Made by a program: the position numbers and the translations under genes. Under the pieces are notes generated by a model, which had not been told where the DNA came from, did not search any database, and saw nothing but the letters and a program-made list of their open reading frames with translations. Positions 26,230 through 27,935 of a stretch of DNA of 64,000 nt are shown one piece after another; position 1 is the stretch's first letter; each line of letters starts with the position of its first letter. Source of the stretch: a virus. The stretch lies in UHGV virus genome UHGV-1493261. One strand, 5' to 3'.

Positions 26230-26889
26230 ATGTCCTACTCCCTGAAGGGGCTGATGAAGCGCCCCGTCCACACATTCTTTAAACCACCCGTCGTAAAGGG
26301 GATCTACCCAGCACGAGGGCAAATCTACTACGTCAAAGGCTCCAATGGTAGCGGTAAATCCACTGTGCCGTCTCAGCTGGCGGAGAGGGATCCTCAGGCG
26401 TATGTCGTGACCCATAACGGCAAGGTAATGCTGACTGTCTGTCCTTCGTTCAACGTGGTCTGTATCGGTAAATATGACAAGTCGAAGTCCAAGGGGGTTG
26501 ATTCCCTGAAGGACACTGAGCAGATGTTGTTCGCGTTGTCTATTGCTGACCAACCAGAATACTTGAAATATGATGTGATTTTCGAAGGTATCATTCCATC
26601 CACATTATTGAGTTCTTGGATCCCCCGTCTGACACGCCCACCACGTGAATTGGTTGTGCTCTTTATGGACACTCCTCTTGAAACGTGTATCACCCGCGTT
26701 AAATCACGTAACGGCGGTGTGGACTTCAATGAAAGTCTGGTGGTCGAGAAGTGGGAGAGAGTTCATGACCATCGTCAACGACATAAAGACTTGTTCCCTA
26801 CGGTGGCTGCGGGTATGATGAAGTCTCACGGCCTAACAGTAGACCAGGCTGTGATGGCATTCCTCTGTCGTGATTTTGGGAGTATCTGA
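26230..26889 (+). CDS. P-loop kinase of unknown substrate (candidate nucleotide or DNA-base kinase)
   Basis: Walker A GSNGSGKST; directly upstream of the ThyA-family gene with TGATG overlap. Confidence 0.5.
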   Translation: MSYSLKGLMKRPVHTFFKPPVVKGIYPARGQIYYVKGSNGSGKSTVPSQLAERDPQAYVVTHNGKVMLTVCPSFNVVCIGKYDKSKSKGVDSLKDTEQMLFALSIADQPEYLKYDVIFEGIIPSTLLSSWIPRLTRPPRELVVLFMDTPLETCITRVKSRNGGVDFNESLVVEKWERVHDHRQRHKDLFPTVAAGMMKSHGLTVDQAVMAFLCRDFGSI

Positions 26890-27935
26890 TGGAAATCAAA
26901 GCAATAAACAACAATGACATGCTGAAACAGGCTGTCTTGGCTATCCGTGAATTCGGGATCGAATCTGATCCTGGTAATGCTGAAATCAATACTGATAGCA
27001 CCCGCTTCCTTGATGGCGTGACCATAACCGTCGCCGACATCCGTGACCGCTGGCTATCCGTTGAAGGTCGTAACTCATCGGCTATCGCCGCCATCGGCGA
27101 GACCTTCTGGGTTCTGTCCGGGCGCGATGACGTTCGCTTCCTGTCCCGCGTGTTGCCCCGCGCCGCCAACTTTTCCGACAACGGCCACACATGGCGAGCT
27201 GCTTATGGTCCGCGTCTGTACGCTCATGGTCAGCTGGATAGCGTTATCAACCGCCTGCGCAAGAATCCAAACACTCGCCAGGCGTACCTCACCATCTATG
27301 ATCCGGCTCTGGATTCAGATGCTGGTCTGGCGAAGTTCAGTGAGAGTGGCGAAGCAAAGACCAAGGACATGGTGTGTAACCTGGCTCTGTTGTTCGCCAT
27401 CGTTGAAGGTCGCCTGAACCTGACGGTTATCAATCGCTCACAGGATGTTCTGTGGGGTATGAGTTCAATCAACTTCATTGAGTTCTCTATTCTTCAGGAA
27501 GTGATTGCTCGGGTGTTGGATGTTGACGTCGGCCAGTACAAGCTCTTCTCCAACAATCTTCATTACTACAACAATGAAGTCAGCCAGAAGCAGCTGGGCA
27601 AGATCACGAAGGACACCAAAGTAGAAGCTGGGTTCATCAACTCCATGATCCACTTCACGAACGTGACCAACCAGAACCATATCCGCGATCTGTTCACTGG
27701 CGTGCTTGTTCATTGTGACTTCGGTAGCCCTTGGGAAACTGTTGTTGCCTTCCTGAAGGAGTATGATGCGGATCGCGGTCTGATTGTGCAGATGGCATAC
27801 TGCCTGCACTGCAAATTGAATAACAAGCTCATTAACCTGGACCTGATTCAGGATCATGGATTGAACACCGCGCTCACCCATTCTCCGGTTGACCGCAAGA
27901 TCGTTGATCCTAAGTTCCTGGAAGGTGTAGTATGA
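26889..27935 (+). CDS. thymidylate synthase-family enzyme (pyrimidine hydroxymethylase-like), 348 aa with C-terminal extension
   Basis: ThyA-like blocks WRAAYGPRL, YLTIYDP, INRSQDVLWGMSSINFIEF; the conserved Cys is followed by Asn (VCN) where I recall ThyA having PCH. Confidence 0.7.
   Translation: MEIKAINNNDMLKQAVLAIREFGIESDPGNAEINTDSTRFLDGVTITVADIRDRWLSVEGRNSSAIAAIGETFWVLSGRDDVRFLSRVLPRAANFSDNGHTWRAAYGPRLYAHGQLDSVINRLRKNPNTRQAYLTIYDPALDSDAGLAKFSESGEAKTKDMVCNLALLFAIVEGRLNLTVINRSQDVLWGMSSINFIEFSILQEVIARVLDVDVGQYKLFSNNLHYYNNEVSQKQLGKITKDTKVEAGFINSMIHFTNVTNQNHIRDLFTGVLVHCDFGSPWETVVAFLKEYDADRGLIVQMAYCLHCKLNNKLINLDLIQDHGLNTALTHSPVDRKIVDPKFLEGVV

Follow-up and report, generated by a model that had tools for sequence, protein, structure and literature searches.

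The virus genome UHGV-1493261, of which we analysed a stretch of 64,000 nucleotides (the window), contains an open reading frame (ORF) for a protein of 348 amino acids that resembles thymidylate synthase (ThyA), and this raises the question of which pyrimidine the enzyme modifies and which group it adds. The first-pass annotation, made from the DNA sequence alone, suggested that the enzyme hydroxymethylates pyrimidines and is not a true methylase, and the ORF is present exactly where and at the length reported there (Table 1). Its description of aligned ThyA core blocks also holds: the protein aligns with Escherichia coli ThyA, and residues 67-235, although only these, match the Pfam family Thymidylat_synt (PF00303; E 1.5e-15, 57.5 bits against a cutoff of 24.3). 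Together, the significant profile match and a ThyA fold place the protein in the ThyA superfamily, and PHROG 3676 matches it over its full length (E 5.7e-181). Because the diagnostic residues, genomic context, and orthology all agree, the ORF very probably encodes the folate-dependent deoxyuridine monophosphate (dUMP) hydroxymethylase of Ackermannviridae phages. The same three lines of evidence support the hydroxymethylase proposal of the first-pass annotation.

A 5-kb segment centred on this locus shares 98.7% identity with Escherichia phage AV101 and ~91% with Shigella phage AG3, two Agtrevirus phages in the family Ackermannviridae. The segment matches 270 phage records, mostly of ViI-like Salmonella, Klebsiella, Escherichia, and Dickeya phages, and on sequence similarity the window is assigned to an Agtrevirus-type Ackermannviridae phage. 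The protein is 100% identical to the 'putative thymidylate synthase' of AV101, identical at 325 of 348 residues (93%) to AG3 gp059, and ~74-76% identical to its Kuttervirus and Taipeivirus orthologues. The dUMP hydroxymethyltransferases of ViI-like phages (ViI, CBA120 orf073, AG3 gp059, and PP35 ORF43) are orthologues that show no substantive difference from the window protein beyond their annotation labels ('thymidylate synthase' versus 'deoxyuridylate hydroxymethyltransferase'). The enzyme is therefore already known, as work of 2011 and 2018 had recognised it in the group formed by phages ViI, CBA120, and AG3, and it is nothing unusual for the family. Three 'thymidylate synthases', from CBA120, ViI, and AG3, were found to group with dUMP hydroxymethylases from SPO1, phiW-14, and YuA (Kutter et al, 2011, PMC3184105), and in ViI-like phages the gene for the 5-hydroxymethyl-deoxyuridine (5-hmdU) DNA kinase (5-HMUDK) was found beside the dUMP hydroxymethyltransferase gene (Lee et al, 2018, PMC5889632). 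The paper describing Dickeya phage PP35 identifies the orthologue ORF43 as a dUMP hydroxymethyltransferase and reports that the pathway genes are conserved across Ackermannviridae, with which a 2024 review of the family agrees.

Diagnostic residues of the catalytic core

The E. coli ThyA reference was first verified to be identical to PDB 1aob, and the window protein was aligned directly to the verified sequence. Conservation was counted in an alignment of 64 homologs, which leaves out longer relatives of 490-600 amino acids. Diagnostic positions, in E. coli ThyA numbering, were taken from a study of the ternary complex of the T4 deoxycytidine monophosphate (dCMP) hydroxymethylase (PMC6400193) and from a 2026 Nucleic Acids Research (NAR) paper on 5-hydroxy-dCMP synthases (PMC13326640). 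The window protein has the same fold as E. coli ThyA and the same substrate-binding residues (E58, Y94, R126, C146, R166, S167, D169, N177, H207, and Y209 in ThyA). In the alignment, its C163, E71, Y106, R183/S184/D186, and H225/Y227 fall on ThyA C146, E58, Y94, R166/S167/D169, and H207/Y209, and C163, the putative catalytic thiol, also falls on C148 of the T4 dCMP hydroxymethylase. Residues C163, E71, Y106, R183, D186, H225, and Y227 are invariant in all 64 homologs, while position 184 varies (Ser in 55, Ala in 9). The two proteins differ at L143, which becomes Asp in the window protein, H147 (Asn), W80/W83 (Ala/Phe), and R127 (Gln).

Three positions distinguish the known activities of the superfamily. 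At ThyA position 143, Leu excludes water and a methyl group is formed, whereas Asp or Glu at this position, three residues before the catalytic cysteine (Cys-3), activates water and a hydroxymethyl group is formed (PMC6400193, PMC13326640). At position 177, Asn specifies uracil and Asp cytosine, and at position 169, Asp marks a folate enzyme and Asn a flavin-dependent 5-hydroxylase (PMC13326640). The window protein has D160 at the first of these positions, aligned with L143 of E. coli ThyA and D145 of the T4 enzyme (Asp in 63/64 homologs), N195 at the second (Asn in 64/64), and D186 at the third (Asp in 64/64). All three are consistent with a folate-dependent dUMP hydroxymethylase, and together they are enough for a sequence-based classification of the enzyme. 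The protein agrees with that activity at every sequence-level test and departs from a true thymidylate synthase, a dCMP or cytidine monophosphate (CMP) hydroxymethylase, and a flavin hydroxylase, all of which were rejected on the diagnostic residues. One homolog (P0094, 398 amino acids) is alone among the 64 in having Ala instead of Asp at Cys-3, in the motif R-R-A-C-N, and its product could differ from a hydroxymethyl group.

The sugar-binding residues can be compared with those of MilA, the CMP 5-hydroxymethylase of Streptomyces rimofaciens (PDB 5jnh, 5b6d), in which K133 and A176 confer preference for ribose (PMC5175136). At the equivalent positions the window protein has R130 and S184, a deoxyribose-type Arg/Ser pair. 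Nine homologs (P0040-P0043, P0046, P0047, P0056, P0062, and P0066) combine the uracil-type Asn and the Asp at Cys-3 with Lys and Ala at the K133/A176 positions. Some of these are encoded on large contigs of bacteria (Paenarthrobacter, Rhizobium rhizogenes), and from their residues the nine could be UMP rather than dUMP hydroxymethylases. Another homolog (P0115, 375 amino acids) has a nucleoside 2-deoxyribosyltransferase domain (Pfam Nuc_deoxyrib_tr, E 3.1e-9) fused to a partial ThyA-like domain.

The feature that first drew attention to the ORF was a Cys-Asn pair in place of the Cys-His of ThyA. This substitution is borne out by the codons of the nucleophile motif (Table 1) and by the E. coli ThyA alignment, in which C163-N164 lies on Cys146-His147; the histidine is not found elsewhere with an otherwise canonical set of ThyA residues, and L143 is also replaced, by Asp. 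Because residue 164 is Asn in 58/64 homologs (Thr in the remaining 6) and SPO1-type and Yuavirus enzymes also have Cys-Asn, in the motif KD-x-P-C-N, the pair is a true clade signature of the dUMP hydroxymethylases and not a chance change. The first-pass annotation was thus correct in treating Cys-Asn as a mark of hydroxymethylases, but the pair is not the mechanistic switch, as the published determinant of hydroxymethylation is the Asp at Cys-3, here D160. In ThyA, His147 is part of the hydrogen-bond network around O4 of dUMP, a role that Asn164 could fill.

The C-terminal helical domain

The window protein extends 121 residues beyond the conserved H-x-Y motif (H225/Y227), whereas E. coli ThyA has 55 residues there and the T4 dCMP hydroxymethylase 28. 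The length of the ORF had been considered unusual, and the tail is indeed longer than in those two enzymes, but 348 amino acids is normal for dUMP hydroxymethylases: the SPO1-type enzyme has 383 amino acids and the Yuavirus enzyme 351, and the 63 aligned homologs are 323-398 amino acids long, all with at least 91 residues past H-x-Y. An AlphaFold2 model of the full protein, calculated with the 64-sequence alignment, has a predicted local distance difference test (pLDDT) score of 94.3 and a predicted template modelling (pTM) score of 0.93. It places helices at residues 262-278, 282-290, 298-310, 323-331, and 335-338, with pLDDT of 94-99 for the block. These confident helices indicate that the extension of ~100 residues is modelled as a folded domain, so that the low-complexity linker considered in the first-pass annotation as the alternative for residues beyond about 270 is ruled out.

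The domain itself was previously described as uncharacterised, and that description stands: searches of the PDB by sequence and by profile with the C-terminal domain alone gave no match, and no function could be assigned. Profiles of the Ackermannviridae-type C-terminal region and of the C-terminal regions of distant homologs did not match each other (hhalign probability 1.9%), although a joint MAFFT alignment contains a weak common pattern, D322..L325..A328..S332..R/K336. The segment S332-P-V-D-R-K of the domain is conserved. SPO1 gp29-type and Yuavirus (YuA/M6-type) enzymes illustrate this divergence. They share with the window protein the catalytic core, the KD-x-x-CN motif, the uracil-specifying Asn, and a long C-terminal extension, but are only 27-29% identical overall, have P-C-N where the window protein has V-C-N, and have C-terminal domains with no profile-level likeness to that of the window protein beyond the weak D..L..A..S..K/R pattern.

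The folate-closing tail of ThyA (E. coli residues 258-264) has no counterpart in the window protein, and a helical appendage that may be of the same kind is already present in the crystal structure of MilA (PMC5175136). We read the domain as a family-wide, fast-diverging helical appendage that is positionally equivalent to the five-helix domain of MilA. It replaces the folate-closing tail and, by analogy with MilA, for whose domain such a role has been proposed, most likely supports structure or folding; truncated forms of MilA were insoluble. A more speculative and rather unlikely role is that of a lineage-specific surface, either for docking or for immune escape. A docking surface would couple the hydroxymethylase to the translationally coupled deoxynucleoside monophosphate (dNMP) kinase, 5-HMUDK, or a replication-associated complex for deoxynucleoside triphosphate synthesis, while an immune-escape surface would be under selection to avoid host immune sensors. 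A type I Avs defence system is reported to be triggered by an SP10-like dUMP hydroxymethylase of Bacillus phage SBSphiC (preprint, bioRxiv 10.1101/2025.06.06.658234), and therefore host immunity can recognise members of the family. The homologs also include ThyA-like hydroxymethylases of 517-598 amino acids (P0051, P0054, P0074, P0075, P0097 from Brevibacterium phage LuckyBarnes, P0105, and P0116). Their tails of at least 300 residues, in which fusion partners were sought as a clue to function, had no Pfam match.

Alternative activities

Most GenBank records label the protein a thymidylate synthase, which would make it an enzyme that produces deoxythymidine monophosphate. The Pfam Thymidylat_synt match fits this label, as does the fact that ~60% of T positions in the DNA of ViI hold ordinary thymidine (2024 family review), but a genuine thymidylate synthase is very unlikely here. 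The water-excluding Leu143 is replaced by Asp, a helical domain of ~100 residues stands where the folate-closing tail should be, and the predicted product is correspondingly hydroxymethyl rather than methyl. Seven NCBIfam equivalog models for thymidylate synthase score the protein at 17-57 bits against cutoffs of 108-427 (the best at 56.6 against 327), and the protein is related more closely to MilA than to any ThyA. Phage chemistry also disagrees with the label, as CBA120, whose orthologue falls among dUMP hydroxymethylases, does not incorporate 3H-thymidine (Kutter et al, 2011, PMC3184105), and in related hypermodifying phages thymidine is itself formed from 5-hmdU after replication (PMC5889632). 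A tblastn search of the window found no second ThyA-type gene (E 0.27 or worse).

The kinship with MilA, which is the best PDB match by both sequence and fold, would instead suggest a hydroxymethylase specific for cytosine, with dCMP or CMP as its substrate, and the Asp at Cys-3 is indeed common to MilA, T4 gp42, and the window protein. This activity is even less probable than thymidylate synthesis, because N195 is kept in 64/64 homologs where T4 gp42 (Asp179; PDB 6l18, 1b5e) and MilA have the Asp that specifies cytosine, and because the R130/S184 pair is of deoxyribose type and not the K133/A176 of MilA. In addition, the gene adjoins that of a 5-hmdU DNA kinase, and cytosine in CBA120 is not substituted by 5-hydroxymethyl-deoxycytidine (PMC3184105). 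T4 gp42 also differs in having Thr after the Cys, where the window protein has Asn, and in its length of 246 amino acids, with no helical C-terminal domain. The least probable of the alternatives, with hardly any weight, is a flavin-dependent pyrimidine 5-hydroxylase of the RB69 gp48/HY126 type (PDB 9iqc type). The diagnostic D169N change is not present, since D186 is invariant in the clade, enzymes of this type have Asp at position 177 where the window protein has Asn, and ViI DNA chemistry keeps the folate-derived C5 methylene carbon (PMC8989533).

Some points weigh against a folate-dependent dUMP hydroxymethylase as well. Besides the prevailing GenBank label, the protein has A104-A105-Y106 in place of the Ser-x-Tyr of the T4 enzyme (Ala or Gly at position 104 in 62/64 homologs). 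As the water-binding pair of T4 gp42, Ser94-x-Tyr96, is missing from the window protein, its water network may differ from that of T4. The literature consulted contained neither a direct enzyme assay on an Ackermannviridae orthologue nor a chemical determination of the DNA modification in an Agtrevirus, and the 60 PDB matches listed included no solved dUMP hydroxymethylase structure. The predicted assignment is accordingly built on homology, residue signatures, and phage DNA chemistry.

Gene neighbourhood and predicted pathway

The dUMP hydroxymethylase gene lies in a block of five genes, from 5-HMUDK to a phage ACT-like domain protein, in which each stop/start junction overlaps by 1-4 nucleotides (Table 1). 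The TGA stop of 5-HMUDK overlaps the ATG of the hydroxymethylase gene (TGATG, 26887-26891), the start of the dNMP kinase gene overlaps the hydroxymethylase stop (ATGA, 27932-27935), and the remaining junctions are at 28498-28501 and 29052. These overlaps suggest translational coupling in a nucleotide-modification operon. ViI-like phages have the same neighbourhood, with 5-HMUDK upstream and the dNMP kinase and nucleoside triphosphate (NTP) pyrophosphohydrolase downstream. The dCMP deaminase gene is distant in the window and on the opposite strand; the AG3 record also lists a dCMP deaminase, downstream of the corresponding genes.

Table 1 Features of the hydroxymethylase locus and related genes in the window.
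Feature	Position	Strand	Basis
G+C-rich 9-bp hairpin followed by a T run	26186..26206	+	terminator-like, just upstream of the 5-HMUDK gene
5-hmdU DNA kinase (5-HMUDK) gene	26230..26889	+	Pfam HMUDK_HMUD1, E 1.6e-108
Predicted dUMP hydroxymethylase (deoxyuridylate hydroxymethyltransferase) gene	26889..27935	+	ATG start, 348 amino acids; Pfam PF00303, PHROG 3676
ThyA-like catalytic core (residues 1 to ~240)	26889..27608	+	
Nucleophile motif K159-D160-M-V-C163-N164	27363..27380	+	codons translate to KDMVCN
R183-S184-x-D186 ... N195 (putative phosphate/deoxyribose contacts, folate-orienting Asp, uracil-specifying Asn)	27435..27473	+	translation, alignment
C-terminal helical domain (residues ~255-340, five helices)	27651..27908	+	AlphaFold2 model
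dNMP kinase gene	27932..28501	+	PHROG 139 deoxynucleoside monophosphate kinase, E 3.3e-47
dUTPase_2/MazG-type NTP pyrophosphohydrolase gene	28498..29052	+	Pfam dUTPase_2, E 5.8e-9; PHROG 173, E 5.8e-40
Phage ACT-like domain protein	29052-29594	+	Pfam ACT_phage, E 7.4e-79; PHROG 3839, unknown function
dCMP deaminase gene	44114..44623	-	Pfam dCMP_cyt_deam_1, E 4.3e-16

In the predicted pathway, the dCMP deaminase would supply dUMP, and the hydroxymethylase would catalyse the overall reaction dUMP + 5,10-methylene-tetrahydrofolate + water -> 5-hydroxymethyl-dUMP (5-hmdUMP) + tetrahydrofolate. In a mechanism modelled on ThyA and the T4 dCMP hydroxymethylase, C163 would add to C6 of the uracil, with the ring oriented by N195, and C5 would then attack the iminium form of the cofactor, activated through E71. 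Y106 would help to remove the C5 proton, and departure of tetrahydrofolate would leave an exocyclic methylene intermediate. ThyA at this stage transfers hydride, with Leu143 and the C-terminal tail closing off the site; in the window protein, a water molecule activated by D160 would instead add to the methylene to give the hydroxymethyl group. The adjacent dNMP kinase presumably phosphorylates 5-hmdUMP, a pathway role suggested by earlier work (PMC8989533, PMC3184105), and together with the host nucleoside diphosphate kinase it would produce 5-hmdUTP. The NTP pyrophosphohydrolase, presumed to be a dUTPase/dTTPase, would clear dUTP and dTTP, and the phage polymerase would incorporate 5-hmdU. 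Hypermodification would then begin with phosphorylation of 5-hmdU in the DNA by the adjacent 5-HMUDK; in ViI it ends with 5-(2-aminoethoxy)methyl-deoxyuridine (5-NeOmdU). This nucleotide occupies ~40% of T positions in ViI DNA (work of Lee et al, via the 2024 family review).

The enzyme would thus commit dUMP to the 5-hmdU pathway and to hypermodified thymidine, which protects the DNA of Ackermannviridae against many restriction enzymes and is relevant to phage therapy, to biocontrol with these phages, and to the handling of their DNA. Database labels are misleading for two genes of the pathway, the hydroxymethylase being named 'thymidylate synthase' and the neighbouring 5-hmdU DNA kinase 'terminase small subunit'. 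The latter name belongs to PHROG 800, the best PHROG match of the 5-HMUDK ORF, and is also used in the RefSeq records of AG3, SKML-39, MK-13, P46FS4, and other phages; it seems to be a misannotation that has spread from record to record.

The usual ligands of ACT domains are small molecules, and therefore the ACT-like protein could regulate nucleotide metabolism. Its gene is followed by UvsX, with a 16-nucleotide overlap. At the other end of the block, the hairpin upstream of 5-HMUDK, which separates it from a gene of unknown function, probably delimits the nucleotide-metabolism operon or marks its start. Its loop region contains an extended -10-like sequence (TGcTATAAT), and the AG3 record has a putative extended -10 at the equivalent site, so the element may act as both terminator and promoter. 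Directly upstream of the operon, positions 25315-26154 (+) encode a protein of 279 amino acids that matches PHROG 3905 (E 5.1e-135, unknown function) and no Pfam family, and that has a low-complexity central region rich in Ala, Glu, and Gln.

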